From a virus (taxonomy: Duplodnaviria > Caudoviricetes), in the IMG/VR virus record IMGVR_UViG_3300037307_000387, positions 1-57,136 of that record: a stretch of 57,136 nucleotides of DNA; one strand, written 5' to 3'. Within the stretch, counting starts at the first letter, position 1; the number at the start of each line of letters is the position of its first letter. The notes under the pieces are model-generated. The model saw only the letters and a list, made by a program, of their open reading frames with translations, made no database searches and was not told the DNA's origin. This document shows, one piece after another, positions 7,958-54,603 of the stretch. Both the position numbers and the translations under genes were made by a program.

Positions 7958-9448
7958 ATGAGGACGCTGATCGAGGTCGTGCAGGACGCGAGGGACGCCG
8001 GGACGCCGCTGCTGGCCGTGACGACGACGGACCAGCAGGCTGCCGTGTCGGCCATCTGCAAGGCGAGCAACGGCGCGCCCAAGCTCGCGTGGGACGCCGT
8101 GCGCGGGATCATCCCGCTCAACGAGACGGCGAAGACGTTCTGCAAGTCGAAGTGGGCCGACGACGCCCAACGCGCGATGGAGACGGCCAACCCGCAGACG
8201 GCCCTCGAGGTGGCGGGCCGGCTGCCCGACGACTCCCAGTTCTTCGCCCTCAACGCTCACCGCTTCGTGCAGGACGCCTTCTTCTCGACCGCGGTGCTGG
8301 CGCTGCGCGACACGAACAAGCTGACGGGCCGCACGCTCATCCTGCTCGGCCCCGCCTTCGACCTGCCCGCCGAGCTTCAGCAGGACGTGGTCGTCATCGA
8401 CGACCCGATCCCGACCGACGCGGCGCTGCGCGAGAAGATCGCGAAGCTCTCCTCGGCGAACGGCCTCGCGGTGCCCGACGACGTGCTCGACCGCGCGGTC
8501 GACGCGACGCGCGGGCTGAGCCTCTTCGGCTGCGAGCAGGTGACCGCGATGTCGCTCCGCAAGGTCGGCATCGACCTCGACTCGCTGTGGGAGCGCAAGC
8601 GAACGCAGATCAGCCAGACGAAGGGGCTCAGCCTCCAGCGCACCGGCCCGTCGCTCGACGACATCGGCGGCAACGCCGCGATCTGCACCTACGGCCGGCG
8701 CGTCGTCGCCGGCAAGCAGCCGCCCCGCGCCCTCTACCTCGTCGACGAGATCGAGAAGTACATGGCCGGCTCGGGCTCTGGCGGCGACTCCTCGGGCGTC
8801 TCGGCCGACTACCTCGGCGTGCTGCTGCGCGAGATGGAGGACAACGGGCACGACGGCCTGATCTGCGTGTCGCCCCCGGGATGCGGCAAGACGATGTTCG
8901 CCCGCGCGCTGGCCGTCAGCGCGAAGCTGCCGCTGCTTCAGTTCGACTTCGGCGCGATGAAGGGCCGCTACGTCGGCGACTCCGAGGGCGCGATCCGGCA
9001 GGCGTTCAAGGTGGCGAACGGCGTGGCCGCGGGCCGCGCGCTCGTCGTCGCCACCTGCAACCGCCTCGACTCGCTGCCGCCCGAGCTGCGCCGTCGCTTC
9101 ACGAACGGCATCTGGTACTTCGACCTCCCCGACGCGCAGGAGCGCCTCGCGATCTGGAAGCTCCAGATCGCCGCGCACGGCCTCAGCGCTTCGCCGGCCG
9201 GCGTCACCTTCGACGAGGGCTGGACGGGCGCGGAGATCCGCAACTGCTGCCGCATCGCCTCGCGCCTCGACATCCCGCTCGCCGAGGCCGCGTCCTACGT
9301 CGTGCCCGTCAGCCAGAGCGACCCGAACAGCATCGAGGCGCTCCGCACGCTGGCCGAGGGCCGGTTCCTTTCGGCGAACCGCCCGGGTACCTACACGCGC
9401 GCCATCGCGCCGGAGGGCGGCGAGCGTCGCGTGCGCCGCGAGTCGTGA
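7958..9448 (+). CDS. Ycf46/SpoVK-type AAA+ ATPase with permuted Walker motif order
   Basis: Ycf46-like N-terminal inactive domain; SLDDIGG, LYLVDEIEK, SPPGCGKT, pore loop RYVGDSE, sensor-1 VVATCN, LPPELRRRF, FDLPDAQER. Confidence 0.9.
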   Translation: MRTLIEVVQDARDAGTPLLAVTTTDQQAAVSAICKASNGAPKLAWDAVRGIIPLNETAKTFCKSKWADDAQRAMETANPQTALEVAGRLPDDSQFFALNAHRFVQDAFFSTAVLALRDTNKLTGRTLILLGPAFDLPAELQQDVVVIDDPIPTDAALREKIAKLSSANGLAVPDDVLDRAVDATRGLSLFGCEQVTAMSLRKVGIDLDSLWERKRTQISQTKGLSLQRTGPSLDDIGGNAAICTYGRRVVAGKQPPRALYLVDEIEKYMAGSGSGGDSSGVSADYLGVLLREMEDNGHDGLICVSPPGCGKTMFARALAVSAKLPLLQFDFGAMKGRYVGDSEGAIRQAFKVANGVAAGRALVVATCNRLDSLPPELRRRFTNGIWYFDLPDAQERLAIWKLQIAAHGLSASPAGVTFDEGWTGAEIRNCCRIASRLDIPLAEAASYVVPVSQSDPNSIEALRTLAEGRFLSANRPGTYTRAIAPEGGERRVRRES

Positions 9449-9810
9449 TCCTCCTCCGGCGCGTGCGGCTGGAGTTCAAGGCCGGCTCGTCCGACAAGTT
9501 CTACCTCGCAGAGGCCTACGAGAACCCCGACGGTACCGCCCAGCTCTCCTTTCGGTGGGGCCGGCGCGGCTCCGTCGGGCAGGAGAAGGTCGAGGAGTGC
9601 GACACGGTCGGCTATGCCTTGTGGGCGCTGGTCCAGAAGGTCGAGGAGAAGCGCAACGGCGGCTACGTCGTCGTCGAGGACCGCAGGGGCTACGGCGCGC
9701 TGCGAAGGCCGGTCGCTCGCGCGGCATCCGATCCGCGCAACGACCGGCGGGATGTGACGGCCGACGCCGTGTTCCCGATGGACGGTGAACGCAGGGTGAG
9801 GCTCAAGTAG
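9445..9810 (+). CDS. WGR-domain protein
   Basis: GSSDKFY...FRWGRRGSVGQ...EKRNGGY; GTGA overlap with the ATPase stop. Confidence 0.85.
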   Translation: MILLRRVRLEFKAGSSDKFYLAEAYENPDGTAQLSFRWGRRGSVGQEKVEECDTVGYALWALVQKVEEKRNGGYVVVEDRRGYGALRRPVARAASDPRNDRRDVTADAVFPMDGERRVRLK

Positions 9811-9821
9811 GGAGGTGCGAG

Positions 9822-10145
9822 ATGCCGTGCGATCAGGTGAGAACGACGACGCTCAAGGCTCCAGCCGCGAACGTCGAGACGATGGCCGAGGCGCTGCGCT
9901 CGCTCGGCTACTACGCCGTGGTGACGCGCGCCGGGACGATCGGGGTGAGCCGCGACAGCCTGCGCGGCGAGTGGGCTGCCGGCAAGCTGACCCTCTACGG
10001 CAACGTCGATGCGAGCGCGGAGACGAGCGCGCTGGCGAAAGCCTACGCCAAGCAGTCGATCATCCAGACGGCGAAGCGGCAGGGCTGGCAGCTGCGCTTC
10101 AAGGCCGACGGCGACATCGAGGCCACGCGCCGGAGCTTCGCATGA
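9822..10145 (+). CDS. DUF1257/Ycf35-like protein
   Basis: GGAGGT RBS; MAEALRSLGY...LAKAYAKQSIIQTAKRQGW pattern; next to a Ycf46-type ATPase. Confidence 0.6.
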   Translation: MPCDQVRTTTLKAPAANVETMAEALRSLGYYAVVTRAGTIGVSRDSLRGEWAAGKLTLYGNVDASAETSALAKAYAKQSIIQTAKRQGWQLRFKADGDIEATRRSFA

Positions 10146-10300
10146 GCGTCTGGCTGGCGCTCGGCTACCTCACCGCTTGGCTCGTCGTCGCGATCGCGAT
10201 CGGCGTGCTCGTCGGTCACTTCATGGCGCGCGTCGAGTACGAGGAGGACCGCCGGACCATCGAGAGGCTGCGCCGCGAGCAGCGGCGGGGGAGAGACTGA
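10142..10300 (+). CDS. Small single-pass membrane protein
   Basis: ATGA overlap; hydrophobic N-terminal half and charged tail. Confidence 0.6.
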   Translation: MSVWLALGYLTAWLVVAIAIGVLVGHFMARVEYEEDRRTIERLRREQRRGRD

Positions 10301-10301
10301 C

Positions 10302-10502
10302 ATGGAAGACAAGATCACGTTCAGGGTGCTGGATGACGGCACCGTCCGCATCACGAGCCCGCGCATCAGCGGCGCGAACCACGCCTCGGCCGACGCGCTC
10401 GTCAAGGGTGTCGAGGGGCTCATGGCCGGCGACACGACCGTCCACCGCCGCACCGACCACGCGCACGCGCACGCCCACAACCACGAGCACTCGAAGAACT
10501 GA
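10302..10502 (+). CDS. DUF2997-like small protein with His-rich tail
   Basis: ITFRVLDDGTVRITSPRISG...ADALVKGVEGLMAG; HAHAHAHNHEH tail. Confidence 0.6.
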   Translation: MEDKITFRVLDDGTVRITSPRISGANHASADALVKGVEGLMAGDTTVHRRTDHAHAHAHNHEHSKN

Positions 10503-10515
10503 AAGGAGAGAGACG

Positions 10516-11499
10516 ATGACGAAGAAGAAGCCGTCCACGTCCACGAGGAAGCCCGAGCCCGCCACCCTCACCCCGACAGAGCGCGTTGCTGAGGGGACGT
10601 TCGTCCTCAACCTCACCGCACACGCCATTCGCACCAGCGCCCGCGTCAAGCGCGAGCAGGTCATCAAGATGGCCTCCGCCCTCTCGACCGACGAGGCGGC
10701 CCAGCGCGAGGGGGCCGACGAACTGTACGTCTCGAAAGAGCTACTGCGAGTCCCCGAGGTGGCCGCGATCATCAAGCAGATCGAGGACACCCGCTGGCTC
10801 ATCCGCAGCTCCGCCCTGCCCGTCCGCTTCCTCAAGGGCGGCCTGTACCTCTACCCCGTCACCAAGGTGGAGTGGGTCGAGGGGGAGCTGGCGAGGGCGC
10901 GGGTGCGGATCTCCGAGCTGTTCTCCGCGCTGGAGCCGCGGTGGGAGGAGATCCTCCGCGAGGACGAGGCTCGCCTCTCGCCCCTCGGCCTGTTCGACCC
11001 CGCCGACTACCCCACCCTGTCGTCCATCCGCGAGGCGACCCTCATCCGGCACAGCTGGCTTCGCTTCGAGGTGCCCACCAGCCTCAAGTCCATCAGCGTC
11101 GCCGTCTTCGAGGCTGAGCGCGAGAAGGCGAAGGCAATGTGGGCCGACGCGGTCGATCAGATCCGCTCCACCTACGCCACCACCCTGAACGACTTCATCA
11201 CCCGGCTGAAGGCTGCCATCATCCCATCCGAGGACGGCACGAAGCGCATCCTGCGGCAGTCGGTGGTCGAGAGGATGAAGCAGTTCCTTTCCGACTACAG
11301 GCTGCAGGACGTGACCGGCTTCGAGGAGCTGGCGACGCTGGTCGACAAGGCAAAGGCCGCGCTGGACGGGATCGACGCTGAGGTGCTGCGGACGGAGACG
11401 GACGCCCGAGAGCGCGTCTCGGTGGTGATGCAGGAGATCAGCGCGGAACTCGAACCGCTCGTCGACGAGGTCGTCCGCAAGGTCAACATCAACAAGTAG
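10516..11499 (+). CDS. DUF3150/DUF932-like helical protein
   Basis: AAAGGAG RBS; VSKELL...GGLYLYP...LFDPADYP pattern; long coiled C-terminus. Confidence 0.55.
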   Translation: MTKKKPSTSTRKPEPATLTPTERVAEGTFVLNLTAHAIRTSARVKREQVIKMASALSTDEAAQREGADELYVSKELLRVPEVAAIIKQIEDTRWLIRSSALPVRFLKGGLYLYPVTKVEWVEGELARARVRISELFSALEPRWEEILREDEARLSPLGLFDPADYPTLSSIREATLIRHSWLRFEVPTSLKSISVAVFEAEREKAKAMWADAVDQIRSTYATTLNDFITRLKAAIIPSEDGTKRILRQSVVERMKQFLSDYRLQDVTGFEELATLVDKAKAALDGIDAEVLRTETDARERVSVVMQEISAELEPLVDEVVRKVNINK

Positions 11500-11509
11500 G
11501 GGGGGTTCT

Positions 11510-11764
11510 GTGGCAAAGCCCAACAACAACCGCGGCGAACTGCTTCGTCGCGTCAGGAAGTTTCTCGGCCTAACGCAGGGGGGGATGGCCGAGAAGATGT
11601 GCGTCAGCGAGGCAACCCTCTCGCAGTACGAGACGGGCGCTGTGCCGCTCCCCACCTACAGGCTCGACACGCTGGAGGTGCTGGTGACGGACGCGAAGGA
11701 CAGCCCGACGCTCCTCCTCAACGACATCAGGAGGGAGCGCGGCAATGACGACATCGACGCCTAA
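11510..11764 (+). CDS. XRE-family HTH regulator
   Basis: LRRVRKFLGLTQGGMAEKMCVSEATLSQYETG. Confidence 0.9.
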   Translation: MAKPNNNRGELLRRVRKFLGLTQGGMAEKMCVSEATLSQYETGAVPLPTYRLDTLEVLVTDAKDSPTLLLNDIRRERGNDDIDA

Positions 11765-12032
11765 GCTCGATTGCCGCCCTGTCAATCCGCACAGCCCCCC
11801 GCCGCTCGCCGACATCGAGAGGTGGCTCCTGCGCCGGCTAAACGACGGCACCGGCCGCCCCTGCTGGCTCATCCGGCTCAAGGAGTCAGGGCTCGTTTGC
11901 TCGCTCTACTGCGGCGACCTCGCCGCGCTTCCGATGGCGGGCGGTCCCTTCACGATGCAGCGCGCGCTGCTCGGGCTCAACGGGCAGGTGACCTACGGCC
12001 CCGAGTGCGCGCTACCGGAGGCGACGACATGA
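11745..12032 (+). CDS. Hypothetical protein
   Basis: Overlaps both neighbours in the operon. Confidence 0.55.
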   Translation: MTTSTPKLDCRPVNPHSPPPLADIERWLLRRLNDGTGRPCWLIRLKESGLVCSLYCGDLAALPMAGGPFTMQRALLGLNGQVTYGPECALPEATT

Positions 12033-12436
12033 TCAGCTTCGAGCGGACGACGTGCGCGTGCCAAAAGTGTGTCGAATGCTGCAAGCGCAAGCCCGGACCG
12101 CTGATCCTCTCCGACTTGGAGCGGCTCCGCGAGGCCGGAATCAACGCGGGCGACACGCTCGTCCAGTCGGAGGGCGGCATCTATGGAGCGGTGATCAACG
12201 GCCGCTTGCGCTTCATCCGCGTCCCGACAATCACGCCGCGTCGCGTGAACGGCCGGTGCATCTTTCTCGCCGCGGATCGCTGCCTCATCCACGACATTGC
12301 CCCGTTCGGCTGCGCCTACTTCGATACCCACATGCCAACGACGGAGTGGCGGCGGCGATCGATCGCGATGGCGAGCGATCAGGCCAGACCCGAATACCAG
12401 AGAGCGCGCGAACTGCTCAGAAAGGAGGGTGCATGA
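12029..12436 (+). CDS. YkgJ-like (CxxCxxCC) Fe-S/Zn cluster protein
   Basis: CACQKCVECC...RCIFL...CLIHDIAPFGCAYF. Confidence 0.75.
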   Translation: MISFERTTCACQKCVECCKRKPGPLILSDLERLREAGINAGDTLVQSEGGIYGAVINGRLRFIRVPTITPRRVNGRCIFLAADRCLIHDIAPFGCAYFDTHMPTTEWRRRSIAMASDQARPEYQRARELLRKEGA

Positions 12437-12630
12437 GACTGCGCGTCCGGCTCGAGGAGGGCCGCTATCCGCCGGTGACGGTCGCGTTCGCCGACACCAT
12501 CGAGGAGGCGCGGCGCATCGCGCTGACGACGATGGTGAGCGCGAGCCGCCCGTGCGCCACCGTCATCACCACCGACGACTACCACGAGATCGAGCGCCGC
12601 AGCACCGAGGCGCTATGGGAGGCACCATGA
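12433..12630 (+). CDS. Hypothetical protein
   Basis: AAGGAGG RBS; ATGA overlaps at both ends. Confidence 0.65.
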   Translation: MRLRVRLEEGRYPPVTVAFADTIEEARRIALTTMVSASRPCATVITTDDYHEIERRSTEALWEAP

Positions 12631-13517
12631 GGCGCTGGTCGAACTCGATGCTGTACACCGCGCAGCAGTGCGGCGAGCGCTTTCGCCGCAAGTACATCGA
12701 GCGCGACTTCCGGCCGAGCGGCATCCGCGCCAAGCGCGGCATCGCCGTCCACAAGGTCGCCGGCAAGTCGCACGTCCGGCAGCTGGCCGGCAAGGAGCGC
12801 GGCGACCCGCGCGAGGTCTACCTCGATGCCGTGCTGTCGGACGAGGAGGCGAAGGACGTGGCCGCGACCGAGTTCGACCACTCGGTCAAGGAGTACGGCG
12901 TCGCGTGGAGCGACGACGAGAAGGCGGTCGGCGTCGAGAAGGTGGCCGGCGAGGAGAAGGACACGGCGGTGCGAATGGCGGGCTACTACGTCGGCAAGGT
13001 CGCGCGCGGCGTCGATCCGCTGGCTGTCGAGCGCTCGCTGACGATCAAGCCGGCGGGGCTCGATGTCGAGATCCTCGGCATCATCGACCTCGTCGGCGAG
13101 GAGCCCGCGCCGGCCCTCGACCCGTTCGCCGAGGAGCCCGAGCGCCGCGTGAGGGGCGTCAACATCGAGGTCGTCCACGACCTCAAGACGAGCGACAAGC
13201 GCCCCCGCGAGGACGCGATCGACTCCAATCAGCAGCTGACGATGTACTCGCTGCTGCGCGCGGCGCAGACAGGGAAGCCGCCCGACCGCGTGCGCCTGAC
13301 GACGCTCGTCAACTCGCGGCAGGGGGTCGTGACGGTGACGCAGACGGGCACGCGCTCGCTCGAAGACCTCAATGCCGTCGCCGCGAGGATCGACGCGAGC
13401 ATCCGCATGGTCGAGGCCGGCGCGTTCGTGCCCGCGAACCCGGATGCGTGGTGGTGCAGCGAGAAGTTCTGCGAGTACTGGTCCGAGTGCAAGTTCGCGC
13501 TCGGGCGCAAGCGATGA
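12627..13517 (+). CDS. PD-(D/E)XK (RecB/Cas4-like) exonuclease
   Basis: SNSML...QCGERF, GIAVH, VE, GIIDLV, DLKT, QLTMY, C-terminal WWCSEKFCEYWSEC. Confidence 0.85.
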   Translation: MRRWSNSMLYTAQQCGERFRRKYIERDFRPSGIRAKRGIAVHKVAGKSHVRQLAGKERGDPREVYLDAVLSDEEAKDVAATEFDHSVKEYGVAWSDDEKAVGVEKVAGEEKDTAVRMAGYYVGKVARGVDPLAVERSLTIKPAGLDVEILGIIDLVGEEPAPALDPFAEEPERRVRGVNIEVVHDLKTSDKRPREDAIDSNQQLTMYSLLRAAQTGKPPDRVRLTTLVNSRQGVVTVTQTGTRSLEDLNAVAARIDASIRMVEAGAFVPANPDAWWCSEKFCEYWSECKFALGRKR

Positions 13518-13553
13518 GAGAGAGCAGCACGCGGGAAGGCATGGAGGTGCCTG

Positions 13554-14420
13554 ATGAACAATACGATTCAGCCGGGTGAGGTTCGTTTGATGACGCTGGA
13601 GCAGCTGGCGGCCCTGAACGTGGACTACGCTCGCGACGGCGGATACCAGCGCGACAGGTCCGAGAAGGAGATCGCCCTCATCCGCGCCCGCTACGGGCCG
13701 CTCTCCGAGCGGAAGTGGCTGCCGTACGTCATAGTGGGCCGGCGCGCCGACGGCGACTACTGCATCGACGGCAACGGGCGTCGTCTGTGCGCCATCGCGG
13801 AGGGGACGCCGCTATGGGTCGTGATCGTTCCCGGCACGACCACGCGCGAGATCGAACGCGGCCTGTTCTGCTGGATCAACGGCGGCGGGAAGGAAGTGAC
13901 CAAGGTCGAATTGGTCCGCGCTCACGACGGCCTCATCGCAACGGCCGTCCGCGAGATGCATTCCACCACGCTGCCTCAGATCTCGTGGCAGAAGTCGGGC
14001 GGGCTGCGCGGTGACGACACCTTGGGCCACATCAAGGCCGACCTCGCGGCCTCGGTGATCTTCACGGGGGCGACGGGGGAGATCGCCTCCAAGGTGTATC
14101 CGCGCGTGCTGGAGGCCACGGAGGTCAAGACCAAGGTGCAGCGAACGATGGGCTGCTGCGCTCTGCTGAACGTGTGCGAGGTGTTCGCCGACCAGCGGAT
14201 CTACCGCGAGCCGGCGCTCGTCGTGGCTGAGGCCACCTTCCACCGGGGTGGGCGGCGCTTCACGAAAGACGAGATCGACGCGCTGCACTCGCTGCCGTGG
14301 CTGAAGCAGAAGGACAAGGGCGAAGCTCGGAGCAATTTCAACTGGGACAAGCTGCGCCGCATGGTGCGCAACGCGCTCGACGCCAAGCAGCATCGGACCC
14401 CGCCGCGGCGTAGCGCCTAG
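13554..14420 (+). CDS. ParB/DGQHR-like domain protein
   Basis: YQR motif and YCIDGNGR (variant of IDGQHR), E..LF..IN; GGAGGT RBS. Confidence 0.6.
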   Translation: MNNTIQPGEVRLMTLEQLAALNVDYARDGGYQRDRSEKEIALIRARYGPLSERKWLPYVIVGRRADGDYCIDGNGRRLCAIAEGTPLWVVIVPGTTTREIERGLFCWINGGGKEVTKVELVRAHDGLIATAVREMHSTTLPQISWQKSGGLRGDDTLGHIKADLAASVIFTGATGEIASKVYPRVLEATEVKTKVQRTMGCCALLNVCEVFADQRIYREPALVVAEATFHRGGRRFTKDEIDALHSLPWLKQKDKGEARSNFNWDKLRRMVRNALDAKQHRTPPRRSA

Positions 14421-14613
14421 GATAATGATCGACTACGGCGTGAAGTGGGCGGCTCTCGCGCCCTCGGGAGAGATGCGCCGACTGCGGCGCGAACGAGCTG
14501 CACGACGAGGGGCGGCGGCTCATCATCGAGGTCCTGACGTGCACCGCTTGCGGGCGACGGGTCTGCAAGCGGTGCCACTTCAGGCACCTCATCGACGGGC
14601 ACAAGGAGAAGGC

Positions 14614-15513
14614 ATGAGCGAGACGAAGACGCTGGTGAAGCCGGACGAGAAGATGATCGCGACGCTGGAGAAGCTGAAGCCACAGCTGCGCGCGGCGCTG
14701 CCGCGCTCGATGGACGCGGACCGCTTCTCGCGCGTCGTGCTGACCGAGATCCGCCGCAACCCGAAGCTGCTGGAGTGCAACCCGCAGTCCTTCCTCGGGG
14801 CCGTCTTCACGGCGGCTCAGATCGGGCTGGAGATCGGCGGGCACCTCGGCGAGGCGTTCATCCTGCCGTTCAACAACCGCCGCAAGGGCACGGTCGAGGC
14901 GACGCTGGTCGTCGGCTACAAGGGACTCGTCAAGCTCATGTGGGAGAGCGAGCAGATCGCCTCGCTCTCCGAGGTCGTCGTCCACGCGAAGGACACGATC
15001 GAGTTCACGCGCGGCGACACCGAGGCGATCAAGCACGTCCCCTACGTCCCGCCCGTCGAGTTGCTGGCGAAGGTGGGCGGCGAGGGCTCGAAGCTCACGG
15101 CCGCCGAGAAGGAGGCGCTCGACCCGGGGCCGGCCGTCGCCTACTACGCGATCATCGAGATGAAGAACGGCGGTCGCCGCCGCGCCTTCATGTGGGTGAG
15201 CGAGGTGCAGCAGCACCGCGAGCGTTACGGCCGCGAGGGAGCCGACAGCGTGTGGGCGTCGAACTTCGACGCGATGGCGCTCAAGACGGTCATCCGCAAG
15301 GCCGCCAAGCTCGCCCCGCGCGCGGTCGAGCGCCCGTCGCTGCAGCAGGCGATCGCGCTCGACGAACTCGCGGAGGCCGGCGTCGGGCAGGAACTCATGC
15401 TGCCCGCCGAGGTGCAGCAGGCGATCGACGGCGGCTCGCCGGCCGCGGCCGGGCTGTCGCTCGCGTCGTTCACGGCCGGCGCGGTGGTCGAATCGAGGGA
15501 CGACACGAAGTAG
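14614..15513 (+). CDS. recT: RecT-family single-strand annealing protein
   Basis: ALPRSMDADRFSR...NPKLLECNPQSFLGAV...GEAFILPF...GYKGLVKL...W..NFDAMALKTVIRK. Confidence 0.92.
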   Translation: MSETKTLVKPDEKMIATLEKLKPQLRAALPRSMDADRFSRVVLTEIRRNPKLLECNPQSFLGAVFTAAQIGLEIGGHLGEAFILPFNNRRKGTVEATLVVGYKGLVKLMWESEQIASLSEVVVHAKDTIEFTRGDTEAIKHVPYVPPVELLAKVGGEGSKLTAAEKEALDPGPAVAYYAIIEMKNGGRRRAFMWVSEVQQHRERYGREGADSVWASNFDAMALKTVIRKAAKLAPRAVERPSLQQAIALDELAEAGVGQELMLPAEVQQAIDGGSPAAAGLSLASFTAGAVVESRDDTK

Positions 15514-15616
15514 CATCCCCGCTGGCGGCACAACAAGACGCCGGCCCCCGGCAGATGGGCTGCGCGGGGGCCGGTTGCTTGCGGGCGCGCCGTCCGGCAT
15601 GGAGGTGCCGGCCGAC

Positions 15617-16756
15617 ATGAGCAAGATACCACGTCAGTCGTCCGCTCCGGTCCACATCATTCCGTGGGCACCGGCAGATTTTCTCGGGAGCCGCACGCGC
15701 GCTCGCGCGATCCGCTCCAACGACCTCGCGCTGCGCGTCTTCTACCGCGAGGCCCTCGACGTGCTCTACATGCAGGGGGGGGTTATCGTCGCTGACGCGC
15801 TCGTCGACCTGCTGGCTTTCAGTGAGGCTGAGGTGCTGCGCTGCGTCGAGGCGTGCTGCTCGCTCGGGAGCCTCATCGCCGAGACCAAAGATGGCACGCC
15901 GCTGGCCCCGCCGTTCGTCTCTGAGCCGTCGGGTAGGCCAATCCCGCTCGATGAGATCGTGCTGCACAACTCTCGCGTGCTGAGAGAGTTAGCGACGATC
16001 CACGAGCGCCGCGAGCACATCGCTGATGTCGGTCGCAAGAGCGGGCACCTCGGTAAGCAGTTCGGCTTCCTCGGGGGTCCCTTCGGTGTGCTCGGTGGGA
16101 GGCCGCGGGGGAAACCCCCCCAAGACGGGGGTCTAACCCCCCCTCCATCTCCTTCTCCTTCTCCTTCTCCTTCTCCTTCTCCTTCCCCTTCCCCTTCTCC
16201 TTCTCCTAAGAAGACGACGTGGCTGACCCCCTACGGTGAGGCATGGCTCGCGGCGGTTGGAGGTGAGCCACCGTGGGAGCAGATGGCCAGAGAGTTCAAG
16301 AAGCCGCACGACCGCATCGGCGAGGAGGCGCTGCTCGTTGGCTGGAAGCACTACCTCGCGGAGACAGAGCCTCGCTTCGTGAGCCCGTCGGCGTTCGCGC
16401 GCCGTCTCGGCGCGTGGGTGAAGGTGCCGCCGCCGAAGCCATCGCCGAAGCCGAAGCTCCCGCCCGCGATCCCGGCCGTGCAGAAGCGGTGGCGCGAAGC
16501 GTGCGAGCGCGTCGATATGCCGCCGCACCTCAAGCGGACGTGGCTCTCGCCGACCGACGCGCGCTACCTCAGTGACGACGGCGGCCTGACCGTCGTCGTC
16601 CCGTCGAATCCGCACGCCGAGGCGCTACGCCGCTACGAGAAGCGGCTGATCGCCGCCTACAACAACGCCGAGCACTACACCGACTCGCCGGCGCGCTCGC
16701 TGGCGAGCATTCTCGTGATCCCGCAGGACGATGGCCTGCACGACGGAGGACTGTGA
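15617..16756 (+). CDS. Putative replication initiator (DUF1376/YdaU-like N-terminus, Ser-Pro linker, DnaA_N-like C-terminus)
   Basis: WAPADFLG...FYREALDVLY...LHNSRVLRE; (SP)n linker; position after recT. Confidence 0.6.
   Translation: MSKIPRQSSAPVHIIPWAPADFLGSRTRARAIRSNDLALRVFYREALDVLYMQGGVIVADALVDLLAFSEAEVLRCVEACCSLGSLIAETKDGTPLAPPFVSEPSGRPIPLDEIVLHNSRVLRELATIHERREHIADVGRKSGHLGKQFGFLGGPFGVLGGRPRGKPPQDGGLTPPPSPSPSPSPSPSPSPSPSPSPKKTTWLTPYGEAWLAAVGGEPPWEQMAREFKKPHDRIGEEALLVGWKHYLAETEPRFVSPSAFARRLGAWVKVPPPKPSPKPKLPPAIPAVQKRWREACERVDMPPHLKRTWLSPTDARYLSDDGGLTVVVPSNPHAEALRRYEKRLIAAYNNAEHYTDSPARSLASILVIPQDDGLHDGGL
16149..16207 (+). repeat. CCTTCT hexamer tandem repeat encoding (Ser-Pro)n
   Basis: About 10 imperfect copies, directly visible. 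Confidence 0.9.
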
Positions 16757-17127
16757 TGACGCCAGACGAGGCGGCCAAGCTCGTTGAGAGGCACGCGGAG
16801 TGGCTCACGCAGTGGGCGCTCGCGGCCGACACCGACGTGCAGATGCGAGAGGAGCAGGCCACGGCCGAGGCCCTGCGTATCCTTCTCGTTGAGAGAGTAC
16901 GGCTGCGCGAGACCCGCGAGACCTCCGTGGGGCTTCTCGCAGAGCAGCGCGACGCTGCCGAGGCCCGGCTCCGCGAGGTCGAGGCTGAGCGGGACGCGCT
17001 GCTGGTCCAGCGGGACGTGAACTGCCAGTATCTCGATGGAGTAATTGCCGAGCGGGACGCGCTGCGAGAGGCGCTGCCAGAGATCATGGCGGTGCTACTC
17101 GATCCGACTCTGAACGAGATGCTCTGA
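16753..17127 (+). CDS. Coiled-coil hypothetical protein (EAERDAL family)
   Basis: GGAGG RBS; shares its N-terminus with 17983..18588. Confidence 0.7.
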   Translation: MMTPDEAAKLVERHAEWLTQWALAADTDVQMREEQATAEALRILLVERVRLRETRETSVGLLAEQRDAAEARLREVEAERDALLVQRDVNCQYLDGVIAERDALREALPEIMAVLLDPTLNEML

Positions 17128-17140
17128 AGGGGAGGGGGCC

Positions 17141-17404
17141 GTGGCAATAGTTCCCGATGACGTACATGACGGGTGCCAAAGCGAGCTGCGCGCGATGGAG
17201 GCCAAGCTCCGCGACACCGAGGCCGAGCGGGGCGCGCTGCGGGAGGCGCTAGCCGGTGCGGTCGAGGCACTCAAGGATTTTCGCGCCTACTACATCAGTG
17301 ATCACCGCCTTGGCGGAACAGAGCAGGCGAGCCCTGAAATTCGCCGTGCCGACGCTGCTCTTGCGAAGGCTCACGCTGCTCTGAAGGGAGGGGACCGTGG
17401 GTGA
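17141..17404 (+). CDS. Coiled-coil hypothetical protein
   Basis: GGAGGGG RBS; shares modules with the ORFs at 17983 and 18572. Confidence 0.7.
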   Translation: MAIVPDDVHDGCQSELRAMEAKLRDTEAERGALREALAGAVEALKDFRAYYISDHRLGGTEQASPEIRRADAALAKAHAALKGGDRG

Positions 17405-17990
17405 GTGCTGCTTCTGCACGCATCCGGCGCACGGTGCCGGCGGGTGTGACAACTGCCGTAAGGGGCGCGGCTGCAACAGGCCTCCCGGCGTCGCACGGGC
17501 GCTGGCTCTCCACGATCTCAAGGATCGCATCCTGCCGAGCCGTGACGAGACCGACCGGCTCACAGGCAAGCGGATCGCCCCGGAGCCTGCCGCTCCGAAG
17601 GGCCGTGGCAAGATGACCGCAGTGGACAGGTTCTGCATGTGGTGCCGGAAGCCGATGACCAGGGCACAGCGGATCGAGATGGGTTTCTCGGTGATGCACG
17701 GCCGGCAGGCGGTCTGCTCCGAGCGGTGCCGTCTGCTGTGGAACACGCAAGGGAGGTTGGGAATGAGAGAGGACGACAAGCCGACGTACGCGGAGCTGGC
17801 GAAAGAGTGCGATTGGGGACAGGTAGTGTCCAACGGCGGCCCGCCGTGTTTCTACGTCGAAACCGATGGCACCAAGTCGCGCTTCTGTCTCCGGGCAGAG
17901 CGATGGCGCGGACACACCGACAAGGATGCATGGCCAGAGCATCAATTCGTCTCGTTAGCCGACCTACTTTCCGAGGTGCAGCGTGGCTGA
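17397..17990 (+). CDS. Cys-rich multi-module hypothetical protein
   Basis: GGAGGGG RBS; several CxxC clusters; may be a fusion of two or three small genes. Confidence 0.55.
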   Translation: MGECCFCTHPAHGAGGCDNCRKGRGCNRPPGVARALALHDLKDRILPSRDETDRLTGKRIAPEPAAPKGRGKMTAVDRFCMWCRKPMTRAQRIEMGFSVMHGRQAVCSERCRLLWNTQGRLGMREDDKPTYAELAKECDWGQVVSNGGPPCFYVETDGTKSRFCLRAERWRGHTDKDAWPEHQFVSLADLLSEVQRG

Positions 17991-18588
17991 GATGACGCCA
18001 GACGAGGCGGCCAAGAGGGCGGGGGAAATCGCCGAGTGGTTTGATCGTCTACACGAGGAGCACCCGCTTGACGGGCGGGACGCAGACGCCGAAACCCTGC
18101 GCGTCCTTCTGGCCGAGCGGGAGCAGTACGGGCTACTCAAGGCAGCGGTCAACGCCGAAGCGTGTGACGACCCGGAGCACGGACCTGACTGCGCGTGCTC
18201 ATTCCACCGAATGCTGGAGGCGGCCGAGCAGCGCGCCGAGACGGCCGAGGCGCTGCTCCGCGAGGTCATGCGCGCAGGGCACAAGCCCGGCTGTGATGGA
18301 GAGGATTCCGACTCTTGCGCCTGTGGTTTCAAGCAGGCCGGCGGGTATGCGGTGCTGGAGGCCAAGCTCCGCGAAGTAGAGGCCGAGCGGGACGCGCTGA
18401 GGGAGGCGTTAGCGGGTGCGGAGCAACTAGCAACAACCGCTCGATGGGCCTATGACAAGCTGACATCTATCGAGCAATACGGAGAGCATCGGGACAATCC
18501 ATTGCCGGCTTTGTTGCGTGGTGCCCTTGCTGCATGGGATGAATCTCGCGCTGCTCTGGAGGGAGGGGACCGTGGCGGTAGTTCCTGA
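17983..18588 (+). CDS. Coiled-coil/Cys hypothetical protein
   Basis: GAGGTG RBS; mosaic of repeated modules. Confidence 0.7.
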   Translation: MAEMTPDEAAKRAGEIAEWFDRLHEEHPLDGRDADAETLRVLLAEREQYGLLKAAVNAEACDDPEHGPDCACSFHRMLEAAEQRAETAEALLREVMRAGHKPGCDGEDSDSCACGFKQAGGYAVLEAKLREVEAERDALREALAGAEQLATTARWAYDKLTSIEQYGEHRDNPLPALLRGALAAWDESRAALEGGDRGGSS

Positions 18589-19168
18589 TGATGTACACGA
18601 CAAGTGCACGGCATTGCTTGCGAAGGTCGAGGCCGAGCGGGACGCTCTGCGGGAGGGGGGCGACATGGAGATTGAAGACGAGGCCATGCTCTGGACGTGC
18701 GACGACGCGCCCGAGGGGCTGAGCCACAGCGACCCGGACGAGTGCATCGAGGACTACCTCGACAACTACTGCGACCCGCCGAAGTGGATCGATGGCAAGT
18801 GGACGCCGCTCCCACGCGAGGAGCAGGTGAAGCGGCTGCCCGAGCGGATCACCGTGTACGGATACAAGCGCGCGCCGCTCGTCGCCGACCACATCCTCGA
18901 CCCGGACACGATCCTTGAAAGGATCTACGAGGCGCTCGACGAGGAGCACAACGGCGGCGAAGAGCCCACCGAGCCGACCACCCGCGTGCAAGAGGCAGCC
19001 GCCGCCCTCTGCGCGGTGATCCGCGAGGAGTACGTCCCGTGGAATTGCGAGCGGGTGGCCACGCGCGAGATCGTCGTCGCTGAGTGGCTGGCGCAGCACC
19101 CCGACTTCTTCGACGACACGTGCTTCAACCGAGGTCGCTTCCGCCCCCCGAGCCATTCCGATGCCTAA
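18572..19168 (+). CDS. Acidic hypothetical protein
   Basis: GGAGGGG RBS; alternative start at 18665. Confidence 0.65.
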   Translation: MAVVPDDVHDKCTALLAKVEAERDALREGGDMEIEDEAMLWTCDDAPEGLSHSDPDECIEDYLDNYCDPPKWIDGKWTPLPREEQVKRLPERITVYGYKRAPLVADHILDPDTILERIYEALDEEHNGGEEPTEPTTRVQEAAAALCAVIREEYVPWNCERVATREIVVAEWLAQHPDFFDDTCFNRGRFRPPSHSDA

Positions 19169-19601
19169 GCGCTCGACGAAGAAGACGGACGAGCGCCAGC
19201 GCCGCGCCGCTGAGCGCTACGCCCGGGCGCGCGGCCTGATGCTCGAGCCAGCGCCCGGCGGCTCGTTCGCACCGATCGACTTCGTGCTGCGCGATCCGAA
19301 GACGCGCCGCCCGGAGGAGGTCATCGAAGTGAAGTGCCGCGACAACGGCTCGACCGCGTACCCGACGGTGTGGGCCGAGGAGCGGAAGGTCCGCGCGCTG
19401 ACGCACTGGTCGGGGATCTACGAGTGCCCCGGCCTCTTCGTCGTCGAGTGGGCCGACGGGGAGATGCGCGCGATGGACGTAGAAAGCGTGCGCCTGCTCT
19501 CGGGGCATCCGGTGAGGCGCGAGCGCGTGGGACGGGACGACGCGCTCGACAGCGACATGGTCTACCTCGTCCCGGTAGAGAGGATGGAACGCATTCCATG
19601 A
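19161..19601 (+). CDS. PD-(D/E)XK restriction-endonuclease-like protein
   Basis: APIDFVLRD...VIEVKCR...K...LFVVEWADG. Confidence 0.7.
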   Translation: MPKRSTKKTDERQRRAAERYARARGLMLEPAPGGSFAPIDFVLRDPKTRRPEEVIEVKCRDNGSTAYPTVWAEERKVRALTHWSGIYECPGLFVVEWADGEMRAMDVESVRLLSGHPVRRERVGRDDALDSDMVYLVPVERMERIP

Positions 19602-20104
19602 GCGAAGACAACTGGCCGAAGCGCGCGTGCCGCTCCTGCGGTGCCGAGGTCATCTGGACGCAGACGCAGAGAAGCGGGAAGCGGATGCCGGTCGATGCCG
19701 AGCCGGTCGGCGGCGGCAAGTTCATCCTCGAGCCCGGGAACGACGACGACACGCCGATCGCGATCTTCATCGGCCCGCGCGATCCGTACACCGGCCCGCG
19801 GTACGAGTCGCACTTCTCGACGTGCCCGAACGCGAGCCAGCATCGGCAGCGCGGCCTCACGGTGGTGGAGTGGCTCGTTGTCGTGGCGAGCGTCGGCCTG
19901 CTTGCGGCCGTCCTCTTGACGGCGCTGATGGGCGGCAACAGTCCTGCCGAGGAGGTCAAGCAGCAGCGCCTTCGCCTCATCTCCGAGGAGCGCGGCATCG
20001 AGGTGATGTGCGACACGGTCACGCACGACCTGATCTACGTCAGGGCCAGCCGCGACAGCAGGGGCGGGATCGGCATGGCCGTCGTGCCGGGAGGCTGCGA
20101 ATGA
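19598..20104 (+). CDS. Zinc-finger protein fused to a type IV pilin-like N-terminal motif
   Basis: CRSCGAEVIW...MPVDAEP...SHFSTCP, then QRG|LTVVEWLVVVASVGLLAAVLL. Confidence 0.7.
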   Translation: MSEDNWPKRACRSCGAEVIWTQTQRSGKRMPVDAEPVGGGKFILEPGNDDDTPIAIFIGPRDPYTGPRYESHFSTCPNASQHRQRGLTVVEWLVVVASVGLLAAVLLTALMGGNSPAEEVKQQRLRLISEERGIEVMCDTVTHDLIYVRASRDSRGGIGMAVVPGGCE

Positions 20105-20283
20105 CCGGCCCGATGCTACACGTCGTCGCCGTCTTCTGCCCGCAGTGCAAGCGCGGCCAGATCATGCGCGTCGACGATGCGCCCGCTACGCCGCAGCCCT
20201 GCTGGTGGTGCCGGCACAACGTCGTCGTCGGCCCGCGCCGGCCCCTTGACGCCCCCGGTAAGATAGCGGCTCGGGACCAATGA
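20101..20283 (+). CDS. Small zinc-finger protein
   Basis: ATGA overlap; GGAGG RBS; CPQC...CWWC. Confidence 0.6.
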   Translation: MTGPMLHVVAVFCPQCKRGQIMRVDDAPATPQPCWWCRHNVVVGPRRPLDAPGKIAARDQ

Positions 20284-20492
20284 TGAAGGCCACGACGATC
20301 TACGGAGACTACGGGCTCATGCGCGCAGAGGCGCTGGTGCTCATCGAATACCTCCGCGTGGTCGGTGAGCCGAAGACGGCGGCCTCGACCGAGCAGGTGC
20401 GCCGTGTCATCGAACGCGCGCAAAAGCTTCAGCGTCTCGGCTGGGAAGCGAACATGCTGGCAGCGGAGACGCAGGGGGGGAGATGGCATTGA
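20280..20492 (+). CDS. Hypothetical protein
   Basis: Overlaps both neighbours. Confidence 0.55.
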   Translation: MMKATTIYGDYGLMRAEALVLIEYLRVVGEPKTAASTEQVRRVIERAQKLQRLGWEANMLAAETQGGRWH

Positions 20493-20797
20493 GCTACCCA
20501 TCGACAACGACGAGCGATCCGACCTCCTACGGCGGCACGAGCGGCTGGTGCGACTCCTCCTCGGGGGGCACGGCCGTCGATACGGCCGGCTGGGTCGACT
20601 CCGAGGGTTACTGGTGGATCTATCGCCCGCAGGTCCACGAGCCGCCGCCCCCGCTCGCCTCGTGGACCTATCCCCCGCAGGTCGAGCCGCCGCCCCCGCT
20701 CGCCTCGGGAGCGCCGTCGTGGCGCAAGATCGTCGCGCCAGCCGAGCCCGACCTGTTTCCGCTGGACCGCGAGCGTCGCGTCCGGCGGCTCCGTTGA
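20483..20797 (+). CDS. Pro/Trp-rich low-complexity protein ending in an ERRVR motif
   Basis: GGGGAG RBS; internal duplication WxYxPQV(H)EPPPPLAS; C-terminus FPLDRERRVRRLR. Confidence 0.65.
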   Translation: MALSYPSTTTSDPTSYGGTSGWCDSSSGGTAVDTAGWVDSEGYWWIYRPQVHEPPPPLASWTYPPQVEPPPPLASGAPSWRKIVAPAEPDLFPLDRERRVRRLR

Positions 20798-22462: not shown

Positions 22463-23512
22463 CTACGACAGCGGGACCACGATCGGGTCTTCGGAAACGA
22501 CGAGGTCCGTCTCGAAGACGGTCGGCAGCACGCGGCGCTCCGTCCACGAGTCCGACAGCCGGCCGTAGACGACGACCCCTTCGGTCGACATCGGGGCCAC
22601 GATCATCGGGTGCGCGCCCCCGCGCCCGCGCAGCACGATGCCGTCGCGAAGCTCGGCCGCCGCGGTGCTGGTCGCGCGGAAGGTGAGCCTGACGACGCGC
22701 AGCGGCGACGGTAGCAGGTTGTAGACGTTCGAGATCCCCCATCGGCTCTCGTTGCGGATCTGCTGCTCCTTGTACGCGAGCGAGTAGCCCGCCGCCATGT
22801 GCATCCCCGCGGCCGTCTCCAGCCAGCACGGCACGACCTCGCCGAACCACGGCGTCGCGCTGTTCGTCCCGGTCAGCAGGAGGCGGCCGTAGCGGTTCGC
22901 GATGCCGCCCGTGTCGATCATGTAGAAGCTCGGGCGCAGGATCGTGCCCGTCACCTCCAGCACGTTCGACCCGGAGAAGTTGTCGGTGCTGCTCCGAAGC
23001 TCGCACGTCAGGCCGGTGTCGAGGTTGTGGCCCGCGACGACGAGGGCATTCCAGCGCGGGTGATCGACGACGCTCGTCCCGTTCGTGATGACGATCTGGA
23101 GGCTCATCGTCGGCTGCTGGCACGCCGTCAAGCTCTCGATCTGGTAGTCGAGCGAGGTCGCCGTCGTCATGCACGTGGTCGAGCCCGTCTGCCACGCGCC
23201 GCCGCTCGTCAGGTACTTCAGCGTGGCGAGGTTGCGGACGGTGATCGAGGTCGTGCCCGTCGACGTGAGCCGCCGCCGCTCGCCCGCGCGGACGGTGATC
23301 GTCTTCGTCCCCGGCCCCGAGGGCGCGAAGGCCGTCAGGTCGAACGTGATCGAGGGGTTCGCCGCGTTGCTGCCCAGCAGCGTCGGGCGCGACGGGCGCG
23401 AGTCGTACAGGTTCGCCACCGGGAAGGACGATGCCGCCGACGGCGAGGTCGCAACCGCGTTCGCCCGGCCCAGCAGGTTCATGTGCTCGCCGGCTGCGAA
23501 GTAGTACGGCAT
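22463..23512 (-). CDS. Tail-tip (distal-tail-like) protein
   Basis: VANLYDSRPS, AGHNL; beta-rich; position in the tail module. Confidence 0.6.
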   Translation of the reverse strand: MPYYFAAGEHMNLLGRANAVATSPSAASSFPVANLYDSRPSRPTLLGSNAANPSITFDLTAFAPSGPGTKTITVRAGERRRLTSTGTTSITVRNLATLKYLTSGGAWQTGSTTCMTTATSLDYQIESLTACQQPTMSLQIVITNGTSVVDHPRWNALVVAGHNLDTGLTCELRSSTDNFSGSNVLEVTGTILRPSFYMIDTGGIANRYGRLLLTGTNSATPWFGEVVPCWLETAAGMHMAAGYSLAYKEQQIRNESRWGISNVYNLLPSPLRVVRLTFRATSTAAAELRDGIVLRGRGGAHPMIVAPMSTEGVVVYGRLSDSWTERRVLPTVFETDLVVSEDPIVVPLS

Positions 23513-24558
23513 CAGGGAGCCTCCGTTTGCGCGTCAGCCGCGAGGTCACTCGTCGCGTCGAGCGCCGCCGCGCCCTCGACGGTGGCTGGCCCGATGAACA
23601 GCCCGCCCGAGGACGCGCCAAGGGTAGCAGTCGCGGACGTGATCGTCAGCGTCGCGGTCGCGGTGACGCCAGCCGCGGCCCCGAGCAGCGCGTGGCCGAA
23701 GAAGAGACCGGCGAGCGTGTTCGTCCGCTCACCGAGAGCGTCGACCCTCGCCGTCAGCAGCGCCACCTGCGTCAGCAGCCACGACACCTGCTCGGTGAGG
23801 TCGTCGGCCGTCGCGAGCGCGAGGCTCTCCGTCGCCGCCACCCGCTCCTCCAGAACGACCGTGGTCGCCACGGCCGGCGGCGTGTACGACACATCCTCGC
23901 CGCCAGTCGCCGCGCGGTAGACGACGAGCAGCGCCGTCCAGTTGACCTCGTGCCCCAGTGTCCACGACGCGGTGTCGGTCGTCTCCTCCGTTGGGATACG
24001 CTCGATGAACGACCCGACGTGATTGGTCGCGCCGTGCTCCTCCTCGAAGAGGAGGTTGTACGGTGCGTCTTCGTAAATCGAGATGTCGCCGCCCTCGATC
24101 AGGCCGAGGACGCCGAGGAACAGCCCGCCGTTCGTTGGGCTCGTCACCGAGGTCGTGAAGGGCGAAGCGCCGTAGGTCGTGTAGCCACCGTAGCCGACCA
24201 CCGGGCTGGCGTTGTCGATCCCGCTGTACTCGGCCATGACCGCGAGCACGGTCTGATTGCCGGTGTTGAACTCGAGGTTGAGCGAGAGCGTCCCGCTGCC
24301 CGTGATCGGCACCGAGAACGCGGTCGAGTAGACCACGTCGCCGTCGGACTGCACGCCGTCCTTCGTCACGGTGCCGATGGTCGCGGTGCCGCCGGCCTGC
24401 GTGAGATCCTCGGCGAACGTCTCGCCGTCGAGGTCGGAAGCGTAGTTGCCGACGAGGAAGACGACGCGGTTGCCAGCGGTGACGGGCGCATCGAGCGTGA
24501 CGGTGAAGTCGGAGATGAGGCTCTGCTTGTGCGTCTTCATCTGCACGCGCTGGATCAC
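23512..24558 (-). CDS. Tail-associated/fibre-like protein
   Basis: Thr/Gly-rich beta domain followed by a coiled coil; coupled to neighbours. Confidence 0.55.
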   Translation of the reverse strand: MIQRVQMKTHKQSLISDFTVTLDAPVTAGNRVVFLVGNYASDLDGETFAEDLTQAGGTATIGTVTKDGVQSDGDVVYSTAFSVPITGSGTLSLNLEFNTGNQTVLAVMAEYSGIDNASPVVGYGGYTTYGASPFTTSVTSPTNGGLFLGVLGLIEGGDISIYEDAPYNLLFEEEHGATNHVGSFIERIPTEETTDTASWTLGHEVNWTALLVVYRAATGGEDVSYTPPAVATTVVLEERVAATESLALATADDLTEQVSWLLTQVALLTARVDALGERTNTLAGLFFGHALLGAAAGVTATATLTITSATATLGASSGGLFIGPATVEGAAALDATSDLAADAQTEAP

Positions 24559-51691: not shown

Positions 51692-51937
51692 TCAGGAGGA
51701 CGGGACCTCGACGACACCGCCCCCCTTCTCGATCTCGGCCATCTCCTTGGCCAGCCGCCTCCTGAACTCAGCCGCGTAGGGCGTGTCCTTTACGGCCGGC
51801 GGAAGGCCGAAGGCGACCTCGCGGGTGATGCGGGCGATGTCGTCGGTGTCGATGGTCTCGATGTCGCCGAGCTGCCCCTCCTCCCACTCCTCGAACTCGT
51901 CGTCGGGAATCTCCTCGCCTTCGACTGTTACGCTCAT
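51692..51937 (-). CDS. Small acidic protein (candidate antitoxin/immunity protein)
   Basis: ATGA overlap with the portal-zeta stop; EEIPDDEFEEWEEG. Confidence 0.7.
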   Translation of the reverse strand: MSVTVEGEEIPDDEFEEWEEGQLGDIETIDTDDIARITREVAFGLPPAVKDTPYAAEFRRRLAKEMAEIEKGGGVVEVPSS

Positions 51938-54504: not shown

Positions 54505-54603
54505 GGGTCCTCCCGCGCTCGCTCGGCGCTCGACGTGCGGGAGCATCCTTGGCGGTGGCCCGCCGCTCTCGCCTCGCGCTGCCGGCGGTCGTCAGCGAGG
54601 GAG

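Follow-up and report, generated by a model that had tools for sequence, protein, structure and literature searches.

Why should four unrelated proteins of one phage carry the same five residues, in three cases just ahead of the stop codon? The question is raised by a window of 57,136 bp, which is the entire contig IMGVR_UViG_3300037307_000387 of IMG/VR. A preliminary description of this DNA had picked out the motif ERRVR in the products of an ATPase gene, a WGR gene, a nuclease gene and a proline-rich open reading frame (ORF), and had attributed it to selection on protein rather than to duplication of DNA. We consider it fairly probable (roughly 60%) that ERRVR is the form taken in this lineage by a short linear docking peptide for one shared site. 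The peptide would consist of an invariant arginine, a lysine, arginine or alanine, a hydrophobic residue, any residue and a second hydrophobic residue, and would usually occupy the extreme C-terminus behind a flexible linker. It would belong to a four-gene phage module encoding a Cdc48/p97-like AAA+ ATPase and DUF1257-like, DUF2997-like and DUF3150 proteins. The ATPase and the DUF3150 protein appear to be its constant carriers, to which each phage would add a few accessory ones, here the WGR protein, the Pro-rich orphan and, in an internal loop, a RecT-associated nuclease.

Translation of the contig in six frames yields exactly four copies of ERRVR, all on the plus strand, all in coding frames and all where they had been reported. 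The ATPase tail, APEGGERRVRRES (ending GGERRVRRES), has the motif at 9422-9436, three residues ahead of the stop, and includes R490, the conserved arginine of the family's tail. The WGR protein ends in FPMDGERRVRLK, with the motif at 9787-9801 and two residues to spare, and the Pro-rich ORF in FPLDRERRVRRLR, with the motif at 20771-20785, again three residues ahead of the stop. In the PD-(D/E)XK nuclease (DPFAEEPERRVRGVNIEVVHDLKT) the motif lies at 13140-13154, in a variable loop insertion between GIIDLV and DLKT. The DUF3150 protein, also on the plus strand, ends DEVVRKVNINK; this had been taken for a weaker variant, and proves to be a true fifth copy of the tail, RKVNI at 11476-11490, beginning at R324. 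The lack of relationship among the four ERRVR carriers is borne out by their Pfam matches, which are AAA, WGR, PDDEXK_1 and, for the Pro-rich ORF, none. The likeness among the sites reaches upstream of the motif itself, as [FA]-[PA]-x-[DEG]-x-E-R-R-V-R.

Composition alone predicts 0.03 copies of ERRVR, against the four seen, in the 75 gene products of the contig (16,244 amino acids, from crude calls based on GC content at third codon positions, with starts between 6.9 and 21.7 kb set by hand). When residues were shuffled within proteins 2000 times, ERRVR fell in no protein 1885 times, in one protein 112 times, in two proteins three times and never in more. A 5-mer of any kind was common to at least four proteins in 45 of the 2000 shuffles, and in none of them was one found within the last 10 residues of at least three proteins. 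DALRE is the sole other 5-mer that four proteins of the contig share, and these are four adjacent paralogues.

The codons at the four sites differ, as had been noted (GAG CGT CGC GTG CGC; GAA CGC AGG GTG AGG; GAG CGT CGC GTC CGG; GAG CGC CGC GTG AGG), and the first 11 bases of the ATPase and Pro-rich sites are identical. The back-translated DNA pattern has five matches where 1.6 are expected, a number reached in two of 100 shuffles. Because this DNA pattern is just mildly enriched, the enrichment of ERRVR lies mainly in frame and position. A DNA-level element, a Shine-Dalgarno sequence or a start codon was considered as the reason for the terminal position and was ruled out by the codon differences and the conservation of the protein. 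Overlapping stops and starts do occur here: on the plus strand, GTGA at 9445-9448, right after the tail codons, links the ATPase stop to the WGR start, and TTGA at 20794-20797 links the stop of the Pro-rich ORF to the start of a NinG-like HNH gene. These overlaps suggest translational coupling directly after the tail codons.

The ATPase (496 amino acids; 7958-9448, plus strand; Pfam AAA, E 4e-15) matches p97 D2 in a sequence search of the PDB (E 1e-28). Its AlphaFold2 (AF2) model, with a predicted local distance difference test (pLDDT) score of 93 and a predicted template modelling (TM) score of 0.85, retrieved the D1-D2 region of Cdc48, p97 and Rix7 with Foldseek (E 1e-14, about 560 columns). 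It is modelled as a tandem like Cdc48/p97 D1-D2, with a degenerate N-terminal AAA-like domain (residues 1 to about 255) followed by an active C-terminal AAA domain, and no P-loop sequence can be recognised in the N-terminal half. The proposal that a permuted ATPase complex serves as the hub for the motif therefore survives in part: the family tail and its covariation, described below, link the peptide to the ATPase module, but the tandem seen in the model and in the Foldseek matches rules out a permuted architecture.

The tail is a feature of the ATPase family. Among the best 120 of 854 homologues found at E <=1e-10, which span 44-100% identity, 114 have the anchor FLSAS-PG-Y, and 111 of these 114 anchored tails bear [GTA]-[GAK]-R-[KRA]-[IVL]-x-[LV] with a score of at least 5 bits, a figure that is descriptive. 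The motif follows a variable linker, in tails of 15-62 residues (median 19), and is mostly 0-5 residues from the end. R490 is conserved at 90% or more in alignments of 27 and 79 sequences. The ATPase of the closest relative, IMG/VR contig L001 (93% identical), retains GERRVR, and that of L082 has GERRVN. Applied to 2302 crude ORFs from 80 IMG/VR loci and the window, the tail matrix picked out 43 tails of at least 10 bits, where shuffled tails and internal windows gave six each. ERRVR is thus real as a motif, but its broader form is R-[KRA]-hydrophobic-x-hydrophobic.

The second constant carrier is the DUF3150-family protein (330 amino acids; 10507-11499, plus strand). It has no Pfam match of its own at E <=0.01 and clusters with a family in which 13 of 46 members match PF11348 (best E 1e-10). 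R324 is one of two invariant columns in the alignment of 46 sequences and the only one in an alignment of 79, where mean column identity is 15%. Members of the family are about 310 amino acids long and are encoded 0.1-1.4 kb downstream of the ATPase (interquartile range). The AF2 model (pLDDT 93) has an alpha/beta head with long helices. Foldseek found nothing in the PDB at E <=0.001, and a wide VIA-align search gave at best generic helical bundles (Z 9.9, below the helical noise level), covering mostly residues 188-330.

The accessory carriers keep the motif in the midst of change. The WGR protein (121 amino acids; 9445-9810, plus strand; Pfam WGR, E 1e-11), whose GTG start overlaps the ATPase stop, consists of the WGR domain (PF05406, 45 bits against a cut-off of 22, residues 8-78), a disordered-looking linker and the tail. 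Two other homologues in the database end in FPMDQERKVRLR and in DEPVRKIRLVD, the latter after a wholly different Pro/Gln-rich linker, and a third ends in TARRVRLRD, so that the tail is kept in three of three. This third homologue is from L162, a contig binned to an Acidobacteriota metagenome-assembled genome (MAG), whose ATPase is 67% identical to that of the window. Between the window and L001 five codons of the WGR tail have changed (ERRVRLK versus ERKVRLR), and the codons of the motif read GAG CGC AAG GTG CGA in L001, which encode ERKVR.

The nuclease (296 amino acids; 12627-13517, plus strand) is a Cas4/RecB-like PD-(D/E)XK protein (PDDEXK_1, PF12705, E 2e-16, 61 bits; PHROG 69, exonuclease) whose gene adjoins that of RecT (14617-15513, E 1e-41). 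Its conserved residues include D154, D185 and K187 and, in a C-terminal cysteine cluster, C282 and C288. Alignment of homologues confirmed that the motif is in a loop insertion, which lies between catalytic motifs and is hypervariable and otherwise unalignable. At the end of the insertion R-[RKAQ]-[VLIM]-[RKE] is found in 12 of 16 homologues of 50-97% identity, with one partial match and three without it; among seven homologues of 33-48% identity none has the motif and none the insertion. The Pro-rich orphan (104 amino acids; 20483-20797, plus strand), whose stop overlaps the TTG start of the NinG-like gene, has no Pfam or PHROG match. An exhaustive HMMER search found one true homologue, P0147 (92 amino acids, 74% identity), in which the last 13 residues are identical and a 10-residue difference lies directly upstream; a second match was discounted as a proline-repeat protein.

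L162 has RRVR or RKVR on its ATPase, DUF3150 protein, WGR protein and nuclease, where the loop reads LPRKVRVPG, and its DUF3150 and WGR tails share the same seven residues, RRVRLRD. The motif is therefore kept in homologues of all four of the proteins in which it was first noticed. Because it is kept while flanks and codons change, the peptide is, as judged from these alignments, under protein-level selection in all five carriers, in agreement with the preliminary description. High-scoring tails beyond the core families occur in other loci on four YqaJ-type exonucleases, on Ku, BRCT, SWIM and HNH proteins and on several small orphans. The domain names of the clients (nuclease, WGR, YqaJ, Ku, BRCT and SWIM) suggest that these proteins largely act at DNA ends or breaks.

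The tails of one phage also resemble each other. Over 95 distinct ATPase/DUF3150 tail pairs, matches within a locus number 1.08 across the four positions that follow the arginine, versus 0.57 when the pairs are permuted, and none of 5000 permutations reached 1.08. For example, GRKFSV on the ATPase occurs with SRKFNFD on the DUF3150 protein, GRSYGG with TRLYGD, GRKIRVKG with VRAIRLRK, and GRELE with ERSIEFE. Relatedness was taken into account with a FastTree phylogeny of 90 ATPase bodies, from which the last 25 residues were excluded. For a basic residue at the position after the arginine (R+1), the partner changed in the same direction in 7.9 of 17 independent pairs and in the opposite direction in 0.1 (median p 0.008). 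Judged in this way, the tail changes in step between unrelated carriers of one phage.

Two further members complete the module. The DUF1257-like protein (107 amino acids; 9822-10145, plus strand) has no Pfam match by itself, but its family hidden Markov model (HMM) merges with that of a family matching PF06868, and its Atlas model has a TM score of 0.73 to a DUF1257 cluster. It has no tail, and is a candidate partner. Its C-terminus, ATRRSFA or ATKRRFA, is kept among close relatives (L082 1172-1492; L162 3317-3640) and does not fit the tail motif. The DUF2997-like protein (66 amino acids; 10302-10502, plus strand), likewise without a tail, has the position and size of the PF11211 proteins of related loci. 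It has no Pfam match, and its BLAST family was not merged with the PF11211 family by HMM and was joined to it by hand for the census; its Atlas feature score of 0.79 is a lead only. The protein is His-rich at its C-terminus and ends HAHAHAHNHEH, as does its sub-family in similar fashion, while canonical PF11211 members are without the run, which might bind metal. An ORF of 52 amino acids (10142-10300, plus strand), with one strongly hydrophobic stretch (MSVWLALGYLTAWLVVAIAIGVLVG...), separates the DUF1257-like gene from the DUF2997-like one. Neither DUF1257 nor DUF2997 has a credible sequence relative in the PDB, the best matches (E 0.0065 and 0.0015) being designed proteins, and a PHROG search assigned none of the small proteins a named function.

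Of at least 588 genomic and 226 metagenomic relatives of the ATPase, the analysis as a whole covered 80 per scan. In the census of the module, HMMs built from the related loci found the ATPase in 159 of 161 sources and a DUF3150 gene in 112 of the 159 loci, rising to 76 of the 76 with enough flanking sequence. All four genes were present together in 72 of these 76 loci, which extend 3 kb or more upstream and 4 kb or more downstream, and each gene was on the ATPase strand in all but one case. The window's own module tails are RRVRR on the ATPase and RKVNI on the DUF3150 protein. A full-text literature search, with most subscription journals outside it, found nothing on the function of the tail or the module. 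The module is widespread and unstudied in phages. The sole cultured phage with a full-length relative of the ATPase (35% identity) is Tunturiibacter phage Tunturi_3, in which gp103, the ATPase, ends DGRIIR, gp102 is a DUF1257 protein and gp101 a DUF2997 protein. Its gp96 (L002 15690-16649), annotated as an HNH endonuclease, is a DUF3150 protein by profile-profile comparison (probability 100%, E 1e-54) and ends DRKFHLEGEEF.

If the peptide has one shared site, where might this be? A possible reader, put forward tentatively and from covariation, is a site on the degenerate N-terminal AAA-like domain of the ATPase, near residues 92 and 124. In a first set of 90 loci, tails with lysine or arginine at R+1 occur with aspartate or glutamate at position 92 of the ATPase and a non-basic residue at 124, and tails without it occur with lysine or arginine at both positions. 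A second set comprised 90 new ATPases less than 90% identical to any member of the first, 60 of them with concordant tail states. Here position 124 is lysine or arginine with 2 of 38 basic-R+1 tails versus 11 of 22 non-basic ones, and position 92 is acidic with 23 of 38 versus 3 of 22; position 124 was the top of 2195 column-property tests. In a combined, tree-aware scan of 884 tests, position 124 ranked third (5.5 opposite versus 0.2 same-direction changes) and position 92 seventh. The pattern is present in all three GC terciles, which removes GC content as a confounder, and 109 database homologues, by their own tails only, show the same direction more weakly (p 0.03-0.04, uncorrected). Positions that covary with the tail concentrate in the N-terminal domain: 10 of the best 11 for R+1 (P 0.022), and all of the best 15 for aromatic versus aliphatic residues at R+2, where 207 of the 351 tested positions lie in this domain (P 3e-4). 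In the AF2 model, positions 92 and 124 directly precede strands 94-97 and 126-131 of the degenerate fold, which we presume to be neighbours in the AAA sheet. Several other candidates were dropped, since ATPase position 63, found in the first set, did not replicate in the second, and DUF1257 position 45 and DUF2997 positions 60 and 22 reversed their direction there. Mutual information between tail features and the columns of the four core proteins, in its plain form, was not decisive. A complex prediction of ATPase 1-478 with the DUF1257-like and DUF2997-like proteins and WGR 80-121 gave scores of 0.01, 0.64 and 0.01 in three runs, against a mark of 0.32 and without controls, and speaks neither for nor against a reader.

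On the shared docking peptide, all carriers would plug their peptide into the common site and so be brought to, or compete at, the ATPase machine. Since the accessory carriers look like DNA-end or break proteins, this machine would probably assemble, remodel or unload recombination and repair proteins on phage DNA ends. A more specific and more speculative version, which we would not expect to hold in full, is a self-contained system of tag and machine. A pocket around residues 92 and 124 of the N-terminal domain would read the tag. The tag, encoded in the genes themselves, would be in function to the Cdc48-like unfoldase what ubiquitin is to p97, and would serve it in loading, remodelling or stripping DNA-end proteins on phage DNA, with the tails of the ATPase and of DUF3150 as built-in competitors or assembly latches.

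Several points weigh against the shared docking peptide or against the reader proposed for it. That the ATPase bears the tag itself is not accounted for. In the AF2 monomer the ATPase tail (481-496) has no secondary structure, falls in pLDDT from 70 to 60 and is left undocked, which led us to reject docking in cis. The tail matrix scored the very tails used to train it, and ORF calls in the related loci were crude. Covariation between tails reaches significance, with phylogeny considered, only at R+1: an aromatic residue at R+2 gave 3.6 versus 0.4 changes (p 0.25), a trend without power, and at R+3 there was none. As regards the reader, raw Fisher tests take no account of relatedness and are therefore inflated, and the features at R+1 and R+2 are not independent of each other. 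The second set by itself holds only about four independent pairs, and in it values of 1e-4 to 1e-5 are common among the columns of every protein. Position 98 gave contradictory directions in the raw and tree-based analyses. The N-terminal domain evolves faster than the AAA domain, which may lead such scans to favour it. Position 12 of DUF1257 also replicates (2 of 26 versus 8 of 16), and by the same kind of evidence DUF1257 is an alternative candidate for the reader.

Known systems offer partial parallels. HbYX/GQYL C-terminal tails are found on the proteasome activators PAN, Rpt subunits, archaeal Cdc48, Blm10/PA200, Mpa and Bpa. Like the phage tail, they are short C-terminal peptides behind a flexible stretch, borne by AAA+ ATPases and by unrelated proteins, and all dock into one kind of pocket, as is proposed here for one common site. 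The phage tail differs in its pattern, R-[KRA]-hydrophobic-x-hydrophobic as against the hydrophobic-Tyr-X of the usual consensus, and its place is not confined to the last residues, a loop position being found as well. The window's tails end RES, RLK, RLR and INK, family tails are without a penultimate tyrosine, and the module encodes no proteasome-like ring. The SspB XB peptide binds the N-domain of ClpX, the C-terminal tail of p97 is read by PUB and PUL domains, and the MIM of ESCRT-III is read by the MIT domain of Vps4. In each of these a linker and a short terminal peptide tether partners to an accessory (N-terminal) domain of an unfoldase, as the covariation may indicate here. However, the N-terminal domain of the phage ATPase has a degenerate AAA fold in place of a zinc-binding, MIT, PUB or PUL domain, the peptide is present on the ATPase as well, and the motif is unrelated in sequence to XB, the p97 tail and MIM.

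Sliding-clamp-binding motifs and SSB-tail hubs gather unrelated DNA-transaction enzymes on one hub by means of a short peptide, and the phage tail is similar in joining many unrelated DNA enzymes with one short peptide. It differs from the clamp motif QL[SD]LF, as this is generally written: arginine has a frequency of 0.99 in the tail matrix, which holds no glutamine or Leu-x-Leu-Phe pattern, its constant carriers are encoded by the phage, and its sequence covaries with a phage protein. A parallel in gene content is the set of Ycf46 (AAA+), Ycf35 (DUF1257) and DUF2997 in cyanobacteria and plastids, the same three families that are neighbours in the phage module; a duf2997-ycf35-fed7 cluster is listed for cyanobacteria (PMC4284462). 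To these families the phage module adds a DUF3150 protein and the common tail, which was compared in the phage module only. The literature found on the Ycf46/Ycf35/DUF2997 set, as far as it was covered, establishes no function for any of the three.

Among other explanations, the tail could be a substrate tag that is engaged by the ATPase pore, so that tagged proteins are unfolded or extracted from DNA and the ATPase regulates itself through its own tail. ClpX engages ssrA as such an initiation signal. The Cdc48/p97-like nature of the ATPase, the terminal tags behind flexible linkers and the identity of the carriers as DNA-end binders that are possibly topologically or tightly bound (Ku, exonucleases) are all in keeping with this idea. 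We nevertheless think it unlikely, as covariation concentrates in the N-terminal domain and not in the active AAA domain that bears the pore loops, the internal loop of the nuclease would be a poor place to start threading, and DUF3150, a stable core partner, constantly carries the peptide.

Alternatively, the peptide might direct early phage proteins to a host protease or chaperone such as ClpXP, Lon or FtsH, as a degron or tether that times their turnover. This would also account for a C-terminal, basic and hydrophobic peptide after a linker, and the tail is reminiscent of basic C-terminal ClpX signals and of the SspB XB tether as these are commonly described. A conserved host site, however, predicts one spelling per host clade, independent of the sequence of the phage ATPase. 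Instead the tail accompanies the phage module (in 72 of 76 loci), its sequence varies from one phage lineage to the next with the carriers changing together, and it covaries with residues of the phage's own ATPase, so that we regard this explanation as improbable.

The invariant arginine and the DNA-handling carriers (nuclease, WGR, Ku, BRCT, SWIM and YqaJ) might instead indicate an arginine-rich hook for nucleic acid, carried independently and without a common protein reader. Such a hook would not need two conserved hydrophobic positions or tails that covary within one phage, the tails of many lineages, RKIDLDDD and ERSIEFE among them, are acidic on balance, and the constant carriers are the ATPase and DUF3150, which makes this reading very improbable. 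Chance in an Arg-rich proteome (7.4% Arg, with DNA of 68% GC), or a DNA repeat that happens to lie in the reading frames, for which the 11 bases common to two sites might speak, is hardly credible given the shuffles, the differing codons and the conservation of the motif in homologues despite nucleotide turnover.

The contig is that of a tailed phage, with GC content between 62 and 74% along its length. Genes for terminase, portal, S78 prohead protease and HK97-type capsid are on the minus strand, and the plus-strand region of 6.8-21.7 kb is the early, DNA-metabolism arm, whose products include, by Pfam and PHROG, the AAA ATPase, WGR, helix-turn-helix (HTH) and CxxCxxCC proteins, the PD-(D/E)XK nuclease, RecT, a second PDDEXK protein and the NinG-like HNH protein. 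A scan of the contig for tRNA genes found none. The portal protein (870 amino acids; 51934-54546, minus strand; Phage_portal, E 1.5e-56) has a C-terminal Zeta_toxin kinase-like domain at residues 657-834 (E 2e-20). Four adjacent plus-strand ORFs (16753-17127, 17141-17404, 17983-18588 and 18518-19168) have a LREVEAERDALREAL-type stretch in common, two of the four end GGDRG, and together they look like a local paralogue family. Two minus-strand tail-region proteins (22463-23512 and 24555-26873) carry ERRV[LF]P about 20 residues from the C-terminus, in a register different from that of the tail motif, and this may be chance.

An acidobacterial host is likely for the phage of the window because its nearest relatives include the Acidobacteriota MAG contig and its one cultured relative with a full-length ATPase is the Tunturiibacter phage. 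The best 80 of the ATPase relatives in bacterial assemblies (L162-L241) are also mostly from Acidobacteriota (Bryobacterales, Terriglobia). Several of these 80 are on contigs of megabase size, so that many of the genomic relatives are probably prophages.

Shared docking peptides organise proteasome activators, clamp clients and the interaction of ESCRT-III with Vps4. If the shared docking peptide is the right explanation of ERRVR, the same logic would operate in a phage gene module that, although very common, is unstudied, and the tag would be a means of listing the clients of its machine in any phage from sequence alone. It would also give a handle on three orphan families, DUF1257/Ycf35, DUF2997 and DUF3150. 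Bench work would be feasible since Tunturiibacter phage Tunturi_3 and its host are a cultured pair with the whole tailed module, gp96 and gp101-gp103.

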